A stretch of DNA of 64,000 nucleotides from an uncultured Clostridia bacterium (GCA_947627135.1 CANQUV010000014.1:10533-74532); one strand, 5' to 3'. Positions 6,498 to 28,720 are shown, counted from the first letter of the stretch. Notes: generated by a model not told the origin, from the sequence alone. Program-made: numbers and translations.

Positions 6498-8297
6498 TTA
6501 CTTGTCTTTATTATTTTGTACCGGATATTCGTTTCTGCTGTGTACCTTTAAAAGACCATTTGCATCTTTAGATATATTTTGCTGTTTTCTTCTTAAATTT
6601 TCTTCTCTTCTTCGCTTTGCTTCCTCGTACTGACGTCGTTTAATCATTTCAGCCTTACGACGCTTACGCATGGTTATATTTCTCTTTATCATTCTGTAAA
6701 GATTTGTGAAAAAATATCCTAAATGTATAAAAAATGATTTTACTCCGTTTAAGAAAATTAAAATTCCGTTAAGAATTACTGCACCAACAGTTTTTGCTTT
6801 TTTCTTAACAATCTCTTTATTTACACTGCTTACATGGTTTCTTTCATTTCTTTCATAATTATCTTCATCATCAACAGTTTTTCTGGAATAAATATCATTA
6901 TCTAATTCTAATTCTTCATCAAAATAGTCCTCGCTTTGCTCAAAACTTCTCTCACTTCCGATTACAGGACTATCCTCGAAATCTACATATTCTTCTTCAT
7001 ATTCTTCTTCATATTCCTCTTCTTCATCTTTGCTATATTCCTGTGTTACTTCACCCTCAAAATGGCTATGTGATACTACTTTGGTTTTCTTAAACGATTC
7101 TTCTTCATACTTATCTGTTACAGAATCTTTCTGTTCGGCTTCTTTAGTTTCTTTATCAGGAGTAACAACTTTTAATATAGGATTTTCTTCTGAGGTAAAT
7201 GCTGTATTGCTATTTTTATTTTGTGTCTCTTTTTCACTTGACGTACTAACTATATTATTTTCACTTACAATACTGATATTATCTGAATTTATCTTTTTTT
7301 CTTCTGTTTTTGCTTCTTCTTTTGACAAAGCCTCTCTTTTTTTATTGATTTCTTCAAAATCTTTTGAATTTCTGAACTGTGTAATAATATCATCTGCAGT
7401 TTCTTCATCATAGGCTGAATTCTTTAATGCTTTTTCTGTTGGAGACATATCTCCCGAAAAATTATTTTGTGAAATAATCGGATGAGATGAATATTCCTTT
7501 GCAAGCTCTGAAAGTATCTCTTGATTTTTGATTTTTTTCTCGTTGTTTTTTATATTTTTTTTCTTTTTCTTGTGCTTTTTCTTTATCATAAAAACAATAA
7601 GAACAATTAATATGATTATTACAAATACTATTATCCAAAAAATTGGATTTGTAATTAAATTCTTCACTTCAAACATTTTATGACCGTCAAACTCTACACT
7701 TTGAAGTATAATATCCATATTCTGATAATCTTCATTTGTAAGCTCGCTGTCTTTTGCAGGCTGCAAGGTTAATGTAATATTTTGACCGTCAATTACTGTG
7801 TTGCATTGAGTTGCATATACAGTTTGATCGTTTGATTTTGTTTTTAGCTGTAACTGCATAAATACATAATTGTTATATCTTTTAACTGTACAGCTTGTAT
7901 ATTCCGCTTCCGCTAAAAAGGAATTTTGAACATTTAAAAGCTGCTCATCATTTAAATCACTATAATTGCCCACGCTTTTACTGTTTTCATCAGAAAACAT
8001 TGTAACAGTAAAAACTCTTGAGCTGTCTTCATACATACCTTGCAAATAAATATTGTTACTATTAAAATTGTTCATAGTTGTAGAATAATCTAAACCAAAA
8101 AGAGAAAAATATTTATCTGTTTCGGGACTCTCTCTTGTAATTGCATACATATTATCAGGTAGATCTAAACCCATATTCAGTTCTTTTATGTAATAATGAT
8201 TTTCTGCAGCAAACGCTGAAAAACATGAAAAAGACAATAGCATTAAAACTACAAAAAAAACGGAATAAATACAAAATCCTTTCCTCATATTAAACAT
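6498..8297 (-). CDS. membrane protein with signal peptide, ~200-aa extracytoplasmic domain, TM helix and long E/K-rich low-complexity cytoplasmic region
   Basis: N-terminal hydrophobic signal ending FSAFAAE. TM segment IFWIIVFVIIILIVLIVFMI followed by KKKHKKKKK. Acidic repeats EEEYEEEYEEEY. A second hydrophobic segment and a basic tail follow. No recognised catalytic motif. Confidence 0.5.
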   Translation of the reverse strand: MFNMRKGFCIYSVFFVVLMLLSFSCFSAFAAENHYYIKELNMGLDLPDNMYAITRESPETDKYFSLFGLDYSTTMNNFNSNNIYLQGMYEDSSRVFTVTMFSDENSKSVGNYSDLNDEQLLNVQNSFLAEAEYTSCTVKRYNNYVFMQLQLKTKSNDQTVYATQCNTVIDGQNITLTLQPAKDSELTNEDYQNMDIILQSVEFDGHKMFEVKNLITNPIFWIIVFVIIILIVLIVFMIKKKHKKKKKNIKNNEKKIKNQEILSELAKEYSSHPIISQNNFSGDMSPTEKALKNSAYDEETADDIITQFRNSKDFEEINKKREALSKEEAKTEEKKINSDNISIVSENNIVSTSSEKETQNKNSNTAFTSEENPILKVVTPDKETKEAEQKDSVTDKYEEESFKKTKVVSHSHFEGEVTQEYSKDEEEEYEEEYEEEYVDFEDSPVIGSERSFEQSEDYFDEELELDNDIYSRKTVDDEDNYERNERNHVSSVNKEIVKKKAKTVGAVILNGILIFLNGVKSFFIHLGYFFTNLYRMIKRNITMRKRRKAEMIKRRQYEEAKRRREENLRRKQQNISKDANGLLKVHSRNEYPVQNNKDK

Positions 8298-8448: not shown

Positions 8449-8525
8449 CGAGGTGTAACTCAGTTTGGTAGAGTGCTTGGTTTGGGACCAAGATGCCGCA
8501 GGTTCAAGTCCTGTCACCTCGACCA
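8449..8525 (+). tRNA. tRNA-Pro (anticodon UGG)
   Basis: Cloverleaf read by eye. 7-bp acceptor stem CGAGGTG/CACCTCG, anticodon loop TTTGGGA with TGG at 8483-8485, T-loop TTCAAGT, encoded CCA. Confidence 0.9.
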
Positions 8526-10097: not shown

Positions 10098-10213
10098 AAA
10101 TACAGGTAAATCTTTTATTATTTTAATTTTCAAATTACTTATTTTATAACTTATTATTTTTCTTTATATTAAAATACAAAAACAAAGTCAATTAATTTTA
10201 AAAAGTTACATAT

Positions 10214-10275
10214 TGTGCCGCAATAATACAAATTTTGTCATATTTATTGACAATTTTTTTCACATTATTTATTTT
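10214..10275 (+). promoter_or_regulatory. putative AgrA(LytTR)-dependent promoter of agrB
   Basis: Half-sites GTGCCG (G at 10217) and TTGTCA (G at 10237) lie 20 bp apart. The proximal half-site is 10 bp from -35 TTGACA (10247-10252). A 17-bp spacer leads to a weak -10 TATTTT (10270-10275). Geometry matches the modules at 10905 and 13517. Confidence 0.45.
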
Positions 10276-10297: not shown

Positions 10298-10888
10298 ATG
10301 ATTGCGGAAATTTCAGAAAAGATCTCATCTTTTATTTTAAGCAATTCCGATAACAGCAATAAAGAACTTAAAAGTATTTATAAATACGGTATAGAAATTT
10401 TTATTTCTTCTCTACTTAATATATTTTTAATTTTTATTATTGGCTTTGTTACTGATACTTTAATTCAAAGTCTTTGGTTTTTGATTTGTTTTATTCCTTT
10501 GAGACAATTTACCGGAGGATGGCATGCAAATACTTACTTTAAATGTAATCTAATATTTTGTATATCATATATACTTATAATTCTGTTTTCATTTTTATTT
10601 TCTCATATTGAAAACGCATATCTTATCTTTATACTGCTCTTAACAGGTTTATTGCCTGTAATAATTTTAAGTCCTGTTGAAAATAAAAATAAAAAAATTA
10701 AAAATAGAAAAAAATTAAAATTTTTAAGTACTGTATTGTATATCATATTTTCTATAACAAGTCTTTGCTTTTACTTTTTTTATAAGGAGATATCTTTTAT
10801 AATATTATTTACACTGTTGTGTGTATCAATTGCAGTAATTGCAGGGCGTTTATCAGAAGTTCTACAAACCTTTAATCGACAAAGTTAG
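10298..10888 (+). CDS. agrB: AgrB-family accessory gene regulator B (AgrD-processing membrane peptidase)
   Basis: Polytopic membrane protein with LRQFTGGWHANTYFKC. His and Cys are 7 residues apart, as in the S. aureus AgrB catalytic pair (HAPSSFWC). GAAGG RBS precedes the ATG at 10298. The ORF-track start at 10235 would overlap the promoter. Confidence 0.8.
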   Translation: MIAEISEKISSFILSNSDNSNKELKSIYKYGIEIFISSLLNIFLIFIIGFVTDTLIQSLWFLICFIPLRQFTGGWHANTYFKCNLIFCISYILIILFSFLFSHIENAYLIFILLLTGLLPVIILSPVENKNKKIKNRKKLKFLSTVLYIIFSITSLCFYFFYKEISFIILFTLLCVSIAVIAGRLSEVLQTFNRQS

Positions 10889-10904
10889 ATAAAATAATAC
10901 AAAC

Positions 10905-10970
10905 TTTGCCTAAATTATACATATTATGCCTAAATCATTGACTTTATAATTAAATAATTTATTCTAAAAT
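10905..10970 (+). promoter_or_regulatory. putative AgrA(LytTR)-dependent promoter driving an intergenic transcript
   Basis: Direct repeats TTGCCTAAAT and ATGCCTAAAT with G at 10908 and 10928 (20-bp period). -35 TTGACT at 10938-10943, 10 bp from the proximal repeat. -10 TAAAAT at 10965-10970 with a 21-bp spacer. About 27 of 41 positions match the agrD promoter module, including the blocks TTGCC, TACATATT, TGCC and ATTGA. Confidence 0.55.
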
Positions 10971-10977
10971 TACCAAA

Positions 10978-11228
10978 GTAATGTAGCCTATTAAATTAAT
11001 TTTTAATTTACTATCTTTTGCACAACAGTCCTGCTGCATTACTTGGGTCAATTTCGGACCATGGTGTTTGTAATTCTTTGTAAAGGATGCGGCTTTTGCA
11101 TGAAGTGTTGTCGGCTCCTTCTTCAATTTCGACAACTCAGTTTTATAAACGAGGGCGTATAATTCTTTTTTCTGTTGTGCTTTTACGATAGACTAAAGAC
11201 CTTCCCGCATCGGAAGGTCTTTGTGTTA
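10978..11228 (+). ncRNA. candidate quorum-sensing-controlled small RNA (ends approximate)
   Basis: Bounded by the promoter module above and the intrinsic terminator at 11198-11228. Closing helix GCACAACAG (11020-11028) / CTGTTGTGC (11172-11180). Internal hairpin GTTGTCG/CGACAAC (11107-11136) has a 16-nt CU-rich loop GCUCCUUCUUCAAUUU. No ORF has a usable RBS. Confidence 0.4.
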
Positions 11229-11229
11229 A
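11198..11229 (+). terminator. intrinsic terminator of the candidate RNA / agrB read-through
   Basis: Hairpin AGACCTTCC-CGCAT-CGGAAGGTCT followed by TTTGTGTT on the plus strand. Confidence 0.7.
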
Positions 11230-11261
11230 GCTTTTTATATTTTCATTTTCCTTTTTACCCT

Positions 11262-11300
11262 AAACAGACTAATTGATCGATCGGTCAATTAGTCTGTTTT
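11262..11300. terminator. bidirectional terminator (terminates agrC on the minus strand)
   Basis: Near-perfect 15-bp stem AAACAGACTAATTGA / TCAATTAGTCTGTTT, flanked by T-runs on both strands. Confidence 0.75.
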
Positions 11301-11333
11301 ACTTTTAATGCCGGTTTGTAATAATATAATTTT

Positions 11334-12662
11334 TTAATCTGTTCTTAGAATTACAGTTACGCAAAACATATTGTCGGGACTTTCGTATATATCAAGTTTT
11401 CCGTTGTATTTATTTACAATATGATTTACAGAAGTGAAACCAAATCCATGCTTTGATGAATCTTTCTTAGAAGTTAAAAGCTTAGAATTATTTTTCAACA
11501 CGGATTTTTCAATTGAATTTTTAATGGATAGAGTCATCATATCGTTATCAGCGCTTATTTGTATTTTTATGTATCTTTCATTTGATGTGATCTTTTCGCA
11601 GGCTTCAATGGCATTATCAAGTAAATTGCCCAGAAGATTACATAAATCAATATCATCAATATTAATAATATACTTGCTTGACTGCACAAACACATTTATA
11701 CCCACACTTTTTGCATAAATTATTTTAGAATTAATAATTGCATTTACAGTCTCATTATCTGTGCAGACTGTTCCTCCTAAAAACACCTGTTGGTGAAGAA
11801 GCGTTGAAATATATTTTTGAGTTTCTTCAATTTTTCCTTGTTTAAGCTGCGCTTCTATTACAAACAAATTATGCTTTAAATCGTGGCGAATGGTTTTAAT
11901 TTCTTTTTCCTCAAGTTTTATATTCTCCACATAATGAGCCTGATACTCATTTTGAAGTTTCAAGAGTTTATTTTCTGATTCAATATAGTTCGTGCGACTG
12001 AGCCTGACAATCATATAAAATGAAACAATATTCAGTATAACCAGACATAACAGTCCAAATAAGGCAAGAATTTTACCCATTTCATTGAGTTTGTTCTCAA
12101 TATTTATTAAGTCAATGATTGTAAAAACTGCAGTTGAAATTAAAAATGTTGTTATAATTGAAATCCATTCACTGAAACTCATACTGAACTTTTTTTCTTT
12201 TTCAAAAACTTTCTGAATTACAAGTAATAAATAATAGAGTAAAAACTTTGTAATTACAACAGTAAAGGTACGATAAATACTTTGCTGATAAATTAAATTT
12301 TCGAGCCCCTCTCCGCAAATTGTGGAAACTGCTGTTGCAACAACACTATTTACAATAATTATACTTACAATGGGAATAAGCGACACAATAAACTTTATGG
12401 GAATACTTCCGTTTAAGTAAAGCAAACAGAAAATGAATACAATAGTTGAATATAGCACTGCCCCAAAGCTTTCAAATTCAGTTATGCTGTTGACTGCTGT
12501 TACAAGTAAAGAAAACAACAACCAAAAAATCCAAAAGCCCATTATAAATTTTTTGCCGTTTACTTTTTTGCCCAAAAATTCTTTGGCAAAATTTAAAATA
12601 ATAAGGGTTTCAAAACAAGTTGCCAATATTTCAAATACATACCAACAAATTTTTTCCATCAT
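11334..12662 (-). CDS. agrC: AgrC-like sensor histidine kinase (HPK10 family, GHKL ATPase)
   Basis: About 6 N-terminal TM helices. H-box IRHDLKHNL, N-box NLLDNAIEA, G-box HGFGFTSV. Its start overlaps the stop of the LytTR regulator by 4 nt. Confidence 0.8.
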   Translation of the reverse strand: MMEKICWYVFEILATCFETLIILNFAKEFLGKKVNGKKFIMGFWIFWLLFSLLVTAVNSITEFESFGAVLYSTIVFIFCLLYLNGSIPIKFIVSLIPIVSIIIVNSVVATAVSTICGEGLENLIYQQSIYRTFTVVITKFLLYYLLLVIQKVFEKEKKFSMSFSEWISIITTFLISTAVFTIIDLINIENKLNEMGKILALFGLLCLVILNIVSFYMIVRLSRTNYIESENKLLKLQNEYQAHYVENIKLEEKEIKTIRHDLKHNLFVIEAQLKQGKIEETQKYISTLLHQQVFLGGTVCTDNETVNAIINSKIIYAKSVGINVFVQSSKYIINIDDIDLCNLLGNLLDNAIEACEKITSNERYIKIQISADNDMMTLSIKNSIEKSVLKNNSKLLTSKKDSSKHGFGFTSVNHIVNKYNGKLDIYESPDNMFCVTVILRTD

Positions 12663-13381
12663 ATAGTTTTCCTCAAATAATCCGTAAATTTTTCATCCGC
12701 AAAATTTTTATGATTTCGACTTATTTCAAGCCGTTCACCGTTTTTTAAAATTAAAATTTCTCTTCGTTTGTCAACAAACTGAACATATTTTAAGTTTACC
12801 AAATATCTCTGATGAATTTTGATAAAATCATATTCTTCAAATTCTTTGTCTTTGTCTTTCATAACATCTCTTACTTTTATAACTTTATCATTTGATAAAT
12901 GATATTCTATGTAATGTCTGTCACTTTTAAGATATAGTATATCCATATAAGAAACAACTGTATTAATACCTTCCGCATTTAAAATAAGTGACTTGTTTTG
13001 CTTGTTGAACAAAAGTAGTTTTTCAATAACTTTTCTAATATTATTTTTTATATTATTTGATCCGTCTTTTCTAATAAAATAAAAGGGTTGGTAGTTAAAG
13101 CTGTCATATACAAGTTCATCTTTTGATGTTATAAAAATAATTATTGCATCCCTGGAATCCTTTCTTATTTTTTCCGCAATTTTAAATCCATCTATATCCG
13201 GCATTGAAATATCAAGAAAAAATACATCGTAATGTTCCTTGCCAAGATCTTTTAAAAGTTTTATGCTGTCATTAAATGGAGTAATTTTTGCTGAAGATTT
13301 ATGTTTTTTAAATTCATCACAAACAGTCAGATATATGAAATCCAATGACGACGGATTATCGTCACAAATAGCTATTTTCAT
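12659..13381 (-). CDS. agrA: AgrA-like response regulator (REC + LytTR DNA-binding domain)
   Basis: N-terminus MKIAICDDN, phospho-acceptor region FLDISMPDIDG, and a C-terminal LytTR-type domain (...HQRYLVNLKYV...). AAGGAGGG RBS. Confidence 0.85.
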   Translation of the reverse strand: MKIAICDDNPSSLDFIYLTVCDEFKKHKSSAKITPFNDSIKLLKDLGKEHYDVFFLDISMPDIDGFKIAEKIRKDSRDAIIIFITSKDELVYDSFNYQPFYFIRKDGSNNIKNNIRKVIEKLLLFNKQNKSLILNAEGINTVVSYMDILYLKSDRHYIEYHLSNDKVIKVRDVMKDKDKEFEEYDFIKIHQRYLVNLKYVQFVDKRREILILKNGERLEISRNHKNFADEKFTDYLRKTI

Positions 13382-13435
13382 AATTACCCTCCTTATCTAC
13401 TCATCATTAAAATACAATTATATGTAACTAAAATA

Positions 13436-13494
13436 ATTATATCATTATTTGTCATTTTTTCAATAATAGGCGCAAAACAACCGTAAATGTACAA
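13436..13494 (-). promoter_or_regulatory. putative promoter of agrA-agrC with weaker LytTR-like half-sites
   Basis: On the minus strand: -35 TTGAAA (13458-13463), 16-bp spacer, -10 TATAAT (13436-13441). Half-site TTGCGC lies 10 bp upstream of the -35, and TTGTAC lies 19 bp further upstream. Confidence 0.35.
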
Positions 13495-13516
13495 TTTATT
13501 ATGTTTATAAAACATT

Positions 13517-13579
13517 TCTTGCCATAATATTACATATTTTGCCAGTTTAATTGAACATTTATACAAAGCATAGTAAAAT
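13517..13579 (+). promoter_or_regulatory. putative AgrA(LytTR)-dependent promoter of agrD
   Basis: Repeats CTTGCCATAA and TTTGCCAGTT with G at 13521 and 13541 (20-bp period). -35 TTGAAC at 13551-13556, 10 bp from the proximal repeat. 17-bp spacer, then -10 TAAAAT at 13574-13579. Confidence 0.55.
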
Positions 13580-13632
13580 ATTTTCACAAATAAATGATAG
13601 TTTTCTATTATAAAACGAAGGAGGTAAAAATT

Positions 13633-13773
13633 ATGAAGTTTAAAAGAACACTTGCAAATGCAGTTGAGTCTGTATCTGTAAAAATGGCTAAAGCAGCTCA
13701 AGGCAGTGCATCAATCTTTGGTTTTCATCAGCCTAAAGAGCCTGATATGTCTAAACTTACAGAAAAGAAGTAA
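13633..13773 (+). CDS. agrD: AgrD-like autoinducing peptide precursor (46 aa, below the ORF-track cutoff)
   Basis: AGGAGG lies 8 nt upstream of the ATG. Product: MKFKRTLANAVESVSVKMAKAAQGSASIFGFHQPKEPDMSKLTEKK. It has an amphipathic N-terminus, a five-residue SIFGF segment, then the charged HQPKEP tail typical of clostridial AgrD C-termini. An intrinsic terminator follows. Confidence 0.7.
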   Translation: MKFKRTLANAVESVSVKMAKAAQGSASIFGFHQPKEPDMSKLTEKK

Positions 13774-20920: not shown

Positions 20921-20996
20921 TGGAGCTGATGACGGGACTTGAACCCACGACCTGCTGATTACGAATCAGCTGCTCTACCAACTGAGCTACATCAGC
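20921..20996 (-). tRNA. tRNA-Thr (anticodon CGU)
   Basis: The reverse complement gives GCTGATGTAGCTCAGTTGGTAGAGCAGCTGATTCGTAATCAGC... with anticodon loop TTCGTAA, a perfect 7-bp acceptor stem and encoded CCA. Confidence 0.9.
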
Positions 20997-28430: not shown

Positions 28431-28720
28431 AATATTTTAAACCTGTGATCAAGAGTAGTAAGAATCATATTCTGCTTACAGAGAACCGTGTTTGGTGGAA
28501 ATCGGCAGCAGAATTTTTCCCAATGGACTTGTGAGGGCAGAGCAAAATCATATTAATATCATTTGTAATGTGCAAAAAGCAGTATGAGAGTAGTATCTGA
28601 CGGTATCCTCCGTTACAGGAAATGTTTTTGCAAAGTGGATGTTTACATCAATTTGGGTGGCACCGCAGAAGTTTTTTAGCTTTTGTCCCTTGTTATATAG
28701 GGATAAAAGCTTTTATTTTT
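28431..28720 (+). promoter_or_regulatory. T-box riboswitch leader, specifier UGG (Trp)
   Basis: AGAGA element in stem I. Specifier-loop UGG at 28496-28498, followed by A. Conserved T-box sequence AATTTGGGTGGCACCGC at 28650-28666. Terminator AGCTTTTGTCCC / GGGATAAAAGCT plus a T-run at 28678-28720. Confidence 0.8.

Follow-up and report, generated by a model that had tools for sequence, protein, structure and literature searches.

What controls the three similar promoters of an agr locus in an uncultured Clostridia bacterium, and what does this locus express besides the genes for its own signal? The agr genes are common in rumen and gut Firmicutes, and their wiring and targets are little known (PMC10838665). 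Agr-type regulons generally include a small RNA (sRNA) that is activated by the regulator, as seen for RNAIII, VR-RNA/VirT/VirU, and SpoZ (PMC10602386). LytTR-dependent promoters carry, upstream of the -35 box and 4-11 bp away from it, direct repeats spaced 11-13 bp apart (PMC6193735). An initial annotation of a 64-kb stretch of DNA, referred to here as the window, had described a promoter module present in three copies and had read it as the target of a LytTR regulator encoded in the same locus.

RESULTS

Organization of the agr locus

Judged by domain content, the window carries a complete agr-type locus with predicted AgrB, AgrD, histidine kinase, and Response_reg plus LytTR regulator genes. 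On the plus strand, agrB (10298-10888; 196 aa; PF04647, E = 1.5e-38) and agrD (13633-13773; 46 aa; TIGR04223, 27.1 bits versus a cutoff of 19) form separate transcription units. These flank two minus-strand genes, one encoding an AgrC-like histidine kinase (11334-12662; 442 aa; HATPase_c_5, PF14501, E = 2.3e-25) and the other an AgrA-like response regulator (12659-13381; 240 aa; PF00072 receiver and PF04397 LytTR domains), which is the presumed binder of the repeats described below. The regulator showed full-length similarity to ComE (PDB 4cbv), and the kinase was a weak match to staphylococcal AgrC. Given that both proteins scored far below cutoff on the staphylococcal AgrC/AgrA equivalog models, they are family-level relatives and not orthologues. 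The promoter of the regulator/kinase operon (13436-13463, minus strand) consists of TTGAAA, a 16-bp spacer, and a TG-extended TATAAT, matching 11 of 12 consensus positions plus the TG, and this TTGAAA-16-TGnTATAAT arrangement is kept in the related loci L006/L008, L014, and L015. With a strong TG-extended promoter of their own and no repeats, the regulator and kinase genes are probably constitutively expressed. A 64-aa gene called at ~13393-13587 (minus strand; L001 3795-3989) in the same-species contigs L001-L003 overlaps both the agrD operator-promoter and the regulator promoter; it was not called in other species and is probably a spurious gene call.

Related loci were found by exact-protein look-ups of regulator and AgrB homologues, and all come from uncultured metagenome-assembled genomes (MAGs). 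Syntenic loci were recovered from seven further species, with regulators 51-74% and AgrB proteins 41-69% identical. The window's organism is Oscillospiraceae/Ruminococcus-like: close relatives of its regulator belong to MAGs with these names, and a protein scan of 185,579 GTDB species representatives found no relative of it. Neither the GTDB r232 representatives nor the JGI metagenomes contain the window species or most of its clade, and relatives occur almost only in Logan and ENA assemblies. Locus L015 (1-1433) holds a regulator homologue (P0006, 51% identical) with a 196-aa gene before it and a convergent unrelated gene after it. No kinase gene is adjacent, the TTGAAA-16-TGnTATAAT promoter is kept, and L015 may represent an orphan regulator or a rearranged locus.

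The core of AgrD, SASIFGF, is followed by an HQPKEP C-terminal motif that is kept in the orthologues. Both SASIFGF and HQPKEPDM are identical in four species (the window, L005 3008-3148, L006 4543-4683, and L010 4586-4726), even though the regulators of these species are only 65-74% identical, suggesting that the signal is common to several species rather than split into specificity groups. The cores in L013 and L014 read CSSIFCF and CSSMLGL instead. In SASIFGF, Ser rather than Cys occupies the expected ring position, which would make the mature signal a lactone peptide.

Predicted operator modules and their promoters

Each of the three plus-strand modules consists of two 13-bp direct repeats, T-R-C-A-W-W-W-Y-T-T-G-C-C, with a 20-bp period. 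The agrB operator (10207-10239) comprises half-sites TACATATTGTGCC (10207-10219) and TACAAATTTTGTC (10227-10239). The sRNA operator (10898-10930), which begins 10 nt 3' of the agrB stop codon, comprises TACAAACTTTGCC (10898-10910) and TACATATTATGCC (10918-10930), and the agrD operator (13511-13543) comprises AACATTTCTTGCC (13511-13523) and TACATATTTTGCC (13531-13543). All six half-sites are 13-mers of the form TACAnnnyTTGCC. One exact 13-mer, TACATATTNTGCC, is found once in each of the three modules and nowhere else in the window. The two half-site G residues and the first T of the -35 box lie at 10217/10237/10247, 10908/10928/10938, and 13521/13541/13551, exactly where the initial annotation had placed them, and a direct count on the sequence reproduced its 27 of 41 identical positions between the second and third copies. 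The similarity among the three copies is stronger than had been stated.

The proximal TGCC is separated from the TTGA of the -35 box by 7 nt at every site. A search pattern with a 6-nt gap (TGCC-N16-TGCC-N6-TTGA), as proposed earlier for defining the regulon, had zero matches in the 64 kb. When the pattern was corrected to TGCC-N16-TGCC-N7-TTGA and one mismatch was allowed, it matched exactly the three modules, compared to 0.19 matches expected from 100 dinucleotide-preserving shuffles, none of which (0/100) reached three. We also scored the window with a position weight matrix (PWM) trained on 22 half-sites from other species only, with the window sites left out. The agrB, sRNA, and agrD operators scored 28.5, 30.4, and 35.4 bits, respectively; the next best dimer in the 64-kb window reached 13.6 bits, and the maxima in 30 locally shuffled windows averaged 11.9 bits, the highest being 19.5. 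The three modules are real and far above chance. A fourth, weaker copy that had been proposed on the minus strand before agrA (13470-13494) scored -11 bits with the same PWM, and the region is missing in the L006/L008 orthologue. We rejected this copy; the operon has the repeat-free conserved promoter instead. The operator thus appears to be carried by the signal-production genes and the RNA only, and not by the receptor genes.

Downstream of the repeats, the predicted agrB promoter (10247-10275, plus strand) has a -35 box TTGACA (10247-10252), a 17-bp spacer, and a -10 box TATTTT (10270-10275), with the -35 box and spacing kept in L005 and L006. The sRNA promoter (10938-10965, plus strand) has TTGACT (10938-10943), a 16-bp spacer, and TATTCT (10960-10965), with transcription predicted to start at ~10972. 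The agrD promoter (13551-13579, plus strand) has TTGAAC (13551-13556), a 17-bp spacer, and TAAAAT (13574-13579), and its spacing is kept in L005, L006, and L010. Across seven species the second module reads TTGACT/TTGAAC, 16-17 bp, and then TATTCT (TATTTT in L036). The sRNA promoter had previously been assigned a different -10 box, TAAAAT, behind a 21-bp spacer. In L005 that hexamer reads TAAAGT, and L013, L014, and L036 lack it. The likeness drawn to the over-long spacer of staphylococcal P3 fails as well, because in each of the three promoter classes the conserved -10 box follows after 16-17 bp. Activator dependence had been deduced from the suboptimal spacer; with spacers of 16-17 bp in seven species, it cannot be argued from spacer length. 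The near-consensus -35 boxes and optimal spacers instead mean that the promoters could have substantial activity independent of the regulator, and some basal activity is likely. The conserved TTGAC could also be partly operator rather than -35 box.

A predicted non-coding RNA downstream of agrB

The second module precedes a putative non-coding RNA of ~260 nt (10972-11227, plus strand), which possibly extends to a second terminator at ~11305. The GC content of this region is 36-38%, compared to ~20-25% in its surroundings, and plus-strand folding was more stable than that of shuffled sequences (z = -6.7 for 10975-11305 and -3.1 for 10972-11232). Homologous RNAs of 251-295 nt lie behind the same promoter in seven species. 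A search of 10850-11350 against Rfam 15 gave no match at gathering score, and the best permissive matches (E 0.09-0.2) were to unrelated models. In the window as a whole, the only Rfam matches at the gathering threshold were a T-box leader (28436-28693, plus strand, 99 bits) and two tRNA genes (8449-8522, plus strand; 20924-20996, minus strand).

The structure of the RNA is conserved through compensatory change. In the terminator hairpin (11195-11227; AAAGACCUUCC / GGAAGGUCUUU plus a short U-containing tail), 7 of 12 pairs show compensatory changes (RNAalifold, six sequences). A long-range helix pairs 11020-11028 (GCACAACAG) with 11172-11180 (CUGUUGUGC), the latter an invariant block in two RNA alignments. 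This helix is compensated in L005 (…CAU/AUG…) and L036 (ACAC…/…GUGU) and is replaced by CAACGGUU/AACCGUUG in L013 and L014. Between its strands, a GUUGUCG / CGACAAC hairpin (11107-11136) carries a CU-rich, anti-Shine-Dalgarno-like loop, CUCCUUCUUC (11115-11124). The hairpin recurs with changed stems in local folds of L035, L005, and L036, and the CUCCUUC run is unpaired in the minimum free energy folds of all seven species. When RNAalifold was run on MAFFT alignments of either the complete RNA or its 3' half, nothing emerged beyond the terminator and a single weak local hairpin; the internal helices are missed because their stems are out of register in the alignment, and these helices were checked sequence by sequence. 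The RNA thus has its own promoter, no conserved open reading frame (ORF), a covarying structure, and a terminator, the features of a base-pairing sRNA. We conclude that the predicted transcript is a conserved non-coding RNA, and with no Rfam match it falls outside the described families. Translational control through pairing with Shine-Dalgarno sequences is suggested by the CU-rich loop, although complementarity of such a loop to the Shine-Dalgarno sequence is a generic feature.

We considered that the transcript might not act in trans and could be a small-protein mRNA, an antisense RNA into agrC/agrA, or the 3' untranslated region (UTR) of agrB, which we regard as unlikely overall. Short ORFs are present in it, such as a Cys-rich (…CKGCGFCMKCC…) 39-aa TTG-start ORF at 11043-11162 (plus strand) that lacks a ribosome-binding site, but comparison of five species revealed no ORF whose sequence, frame, or ribosome-binding site is conserved, and the 39-aa ORF, which has no counterpart in other species, was taken as chance. 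The absence of a terminator between agrB and the sRNA promoter means that the RNA probably also forms the 3' end of agrB transcripts; the dedicated conserved promoter, however, argues for an independent transcript and against a mere 3' UTR. An antisense role is favored by convergence on the kinase gene in the window, L005, and L006 and by the weak U-tail of the first terminator (UUUGUGUU). Read-through would nevertheless have to pass a strong bidirectional terminator (11262-11299; a 17-pair stem followed by a T-run) that separates the sRNA from the convergent kinase gene. Moreover, in L013 and L014 the regulator, kinase, and agrB genes share one strand and the RNA is not convergent with the kinase gene; the RNA still follows agrB with its promoter, terminator, and CU run intact, which argues against a purely antisense role.

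Conservation of the predicted operator in related species

The motif was found before agrD or agrBD in the window, L005, L006-9, L010, L013, and L014 (and before agrBD in L037), before agrB in the window, L005, L006, L013, L035, and L036, and before the transcript 3' of agrB in the window, L005, L006, L013, L014, L035, and L036. Over 36 half-sites from eight species, the counts per position were T28, A24/G9, C33, A33, W, W, W, T24/C11, T29, T36, G36, C34, and C36. The TGCC core (positions 10-13) is accordingly present in 36, 36, 34, and 36 of 36 half-sites, and positions 3 and 4 are C and A, respectively, in 33/36 each. The period is 20 bp at the three window sites; among 19 orthologous sites, 18 share it and one, the L006 agrD site, has 21 bp. 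In alignments, the half-sites and the TTGAC box are kept, whereas the 7-nt spacers, the inter-repeat spacers, and the flanks diverge. Searches of the related loci with a loose regular expression and with the PWM revealed no further motif sites, and in every related locus examined the motif occurred only beside agr genes or the sRNA. This linkage extends to L010, which has agrD, regulator, and kinase genes and no agrB, and to L013 and L014 with their different gene order.

Several of these loci show variations on the arrangement. In L013, the agrB operator (7087-7119, 29.1 bits) lies in a 130-nt gap after the kinase gene; agrB shares its strand with the regulator and kinase genes and still has its own operator, with a poorer -35 box, TTGTTA. 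In L014, the kinase-agrB gap is only 22 nt and holds no operator. L010, which lacks agrB and the sRNA and has agrD, regulator, and kinase genes, and L036, which has agrB and the sRNA only, come from runs of the same accession series, ERR1465xxxx. They could be separate pieces of an agr system that is split within one organism, with the shared operator as their only link. A 1010-aa ABC2_membrane_3 gene follows the kinase gene of L010 and has no detectable operator.

In 596 Gb of genomes, the strict sRNA-promoter pattern had only 15 matches: 2 in the L006 species, 1 at a related Acetatifactor site, and 12 in unrelated phyla, 11 of which lack the upstream CA dinucleotide. The same scan of genomes and JGI metagenomes yielded no additional sRNA homologues, and the other matches were set aside as almost all chance occurrences in unrelated phyla. 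The Acetatifactor site (L021 1109-1177; Acetatifactor sp. MAG, JAZSFW010000053.1) reads AACTTGCC-N7-GGCATCACTTGCC-N7-TTGACT-17-TATTCT and scored 24.3 bits; this operator-promoter sits between an AgrC-like kinase gene, which it directly follows, and two downstream genes for ABC-2-type permeases. The more distant locus L037 has TnCAnCTTGTGCC twice with a 20-bp period before agrBD. Given these sites, TTGCC-type operators may be widespread in agr-like systems of Clostridia; as LytTR operators, they may also reach into Lachnospiraceae and have transporter genes among their targets.

The repeats could also be bound by a factor other than the locus's own regulator, either a paralogous LytTR protein or a repressor, for example the XRE-type helix-turn-helix (HTH) protein of L013, an explanation that we consider unlikely. 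The linkage to agr would then stem from co-regulation by this factor. The half-site does differ from all characterized LytTR consensus sequences, and in L013 agrD and the regulator gene are separated by an HTH_3/HTH_19 gene, but this gene is missing in the other seven species. Palindromes are the usual binding sites of dimeric HTH repressors. Direct repeats in tandem, with a period of 20-21 bp and placed 7 bp from the -35 box, are instead typical of LytTR regulators (PMC6193735), and the motif accompanies the regulator/kinase pair even where agrB is lacking, as in L010. It is very improbable that the copies are a local duplication relic or an effect of composition with no regulatory role: although the window is AT-rich, the spacers here are 12-25% GC, and promoter-like hexamers are common (36 versus 27.9 expected), the shuffles gave 0.19 matches against the 3 observed, the PWM built from other species singles out exactly the three sites, and the orthologous loci, with regulators 51-74% identical, are not recent undiverged copies. 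Invariant cores amid diverged spacers and flanks point to selection on the cores rather than recent duplication, and we interpret the conservation of the motif as a phylogenetic footprint.

DISCUSSION

In this study, we analyzed three repeat-promoter modules in the agr locus of an uncultured Clostridia bacterium, and our findings suggest, with a probability that we put at roughly 0.78, that they are operator-promoter units of the locus's own AgrA-like LytTR regulator. The direct-repeat period lies within the ~20-22 bp and the distance from the proximal repeat to the -35 box within the 4-11 bp of LytTR promoters. The half-site sequence itself is unlike the AgrA, ComE, or VirR consensus, and so the modules are assigned to this regulator by linkage and geometry only. 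Of the LytTR-operator reading offered by the initial annotation, the agr locus and the geometry stand, supported by a footprint across eight species, and the agrA copy and the 21-bp spacer do not.

We propose the following model. From the 46-aa AgrD, AgrB would produce an autoinducing peptide whose ring, SIFGF, is probably closed as a serine lactone. Detection of this peptide by the AgrC-like kinase would lead to phosphorylation of the regulator. A regulator dimer would then bind the two 13-bp direct repeats 20 bp apart; this period corresponds to about two helical turns, which would place both repeats on one face of the DNA. Positioned 7 bp upstream of TTGAC, the regulator would aid RNA polymerase at promoters that have a normal 16-17-bp spacer and a non-consensus -10 box (TATTCT, TATTTT, or TAAAAT). 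Separate activation of agrB and agrD would create positive feedback on signal production. The regulator would also activate the ~260-nt RNA that starts just 3' of agrB, and this RNA would most likely serve as the trans-acting effector, through pairing of its CUCCUUC loop with the ribosome-binding sites of target mRNAs.

The closest parallels in design come from agr systems of other Firmicutes. The consensus of S. aureus AgrA consists of 9-bp ACAGTTAAG-type repeats 12 bp apart, whereas the repeats here lack a GTT core and read T-R-C-A-N4-TTGCC, with a period of 20 bp. In both systems, LytTR repeats lie upstream of the promoters of a signal gene and of a regulatory RNA within the locus, and the AgrA dimer binds two repeats immediately upstream of P2 and P3 (PMC4227749). 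The spacers of P2 and P3 are 18 and 20 bp (PMC4227749), in contrast to the 16-17 bp observed here. Unlike in S. aureus, agrB and agrD are separate units that flank agrA/agrC, agrA/agrC are not under the repeats, and the RNA has neither an Rfam RNAIII match nor an hld-like ORF. Given that neither the AgrA repeat sequence nor its spacer rule applies, the modules do not belong to the staphylococcal operator class.

The VirR box of C. perfringens is of the CCAGTTNTNCAC type and differs from the repeats described here. The VirS/VirR system is similar in having a LytTR regulator, two tandem boxes upstream of the -35 box, and the regulatory RNAs VR-RNA, VirT, and VirU as direct targets (cited in PMC10602386). 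Its regulon also includes toxin genes, and agrBD lies elsewhere. In C. difficile, RgaS-RgaR likewise activates agrB1D1 and the sRNA SpoZ through LytTR direct repeats, with a critical G in each repeat, 21 bp apart, at -51 and -72 (PMC10602386). The RgaR sites are VirR-box-like, however, and RgaS and RgaR are encoded adjacent neither to each other nor to agrB1D1. AgrD1 exerts no feedback on RgaSR, whereas here the kinase and regulator genes lie inside the agr locus, making a closed autoinduction loop the simpler reading. SpoZ has no detectable sequence kinship with the RNA described here, which matched no Rfam family.

Two further comparisons concern autoregulation. HdrR and BrsR of S. mutans resemble this system in repeat spacing and in the distance to the -35 box, and both are positively autoregulated (PMC6193735). 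In those systems, the regulator is paired with a membrane inhibitor and not with a kinase and peptide, and it is the regulator's own operon that is autoregulated, while the regulator operon here is without repeats. The fsr system of E. faecalis has its regulator on its own promoter and its signal genes autoinduced through LytTR repeats, as proposed here, but its kinase gene is co-transcribed with the signal genes, and its effector targets are protease genes. No sRNA is known for fsr.

In summary, systems of this kind are well known, and the architecture is what a specialist would have expected. The new details are the operator sequence, the placement of agrB and agrD on either side of a receptor operon that appears constitutive, and the sRNA family. 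More tentatively, and with somewhat less than an even chance of being right in full, we propose that the only conserved agr output of this clade beyond the signal genes is a ~260-nt sRNA family not described before, whose anti-Shine-Dalgarno loop is exposed and which would be an RNAIII analogue without detected RNAIII kinship, and that the SASIFGF signal is shared between species, in contrast to staphylococci, where signals have diversified into specificity groups. If this is true, a gut or rumen commensal would carry an analogue of RNAIII. The operator, T-R-C-A-N4-TTGCC twice, 20 bp apart and 7 bp from TTGAC, would allow regulon prediction in complete genomes of the clade. Together, the candidate effector sRNA and a synthesizable SIFGF lactone would make quorum sensing approachable in an uncultured fiber-degrading lineage. 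Nothing is overturned by these findings; rather, they would extend to a new family the rule that agr-type regulons include an sRNA.
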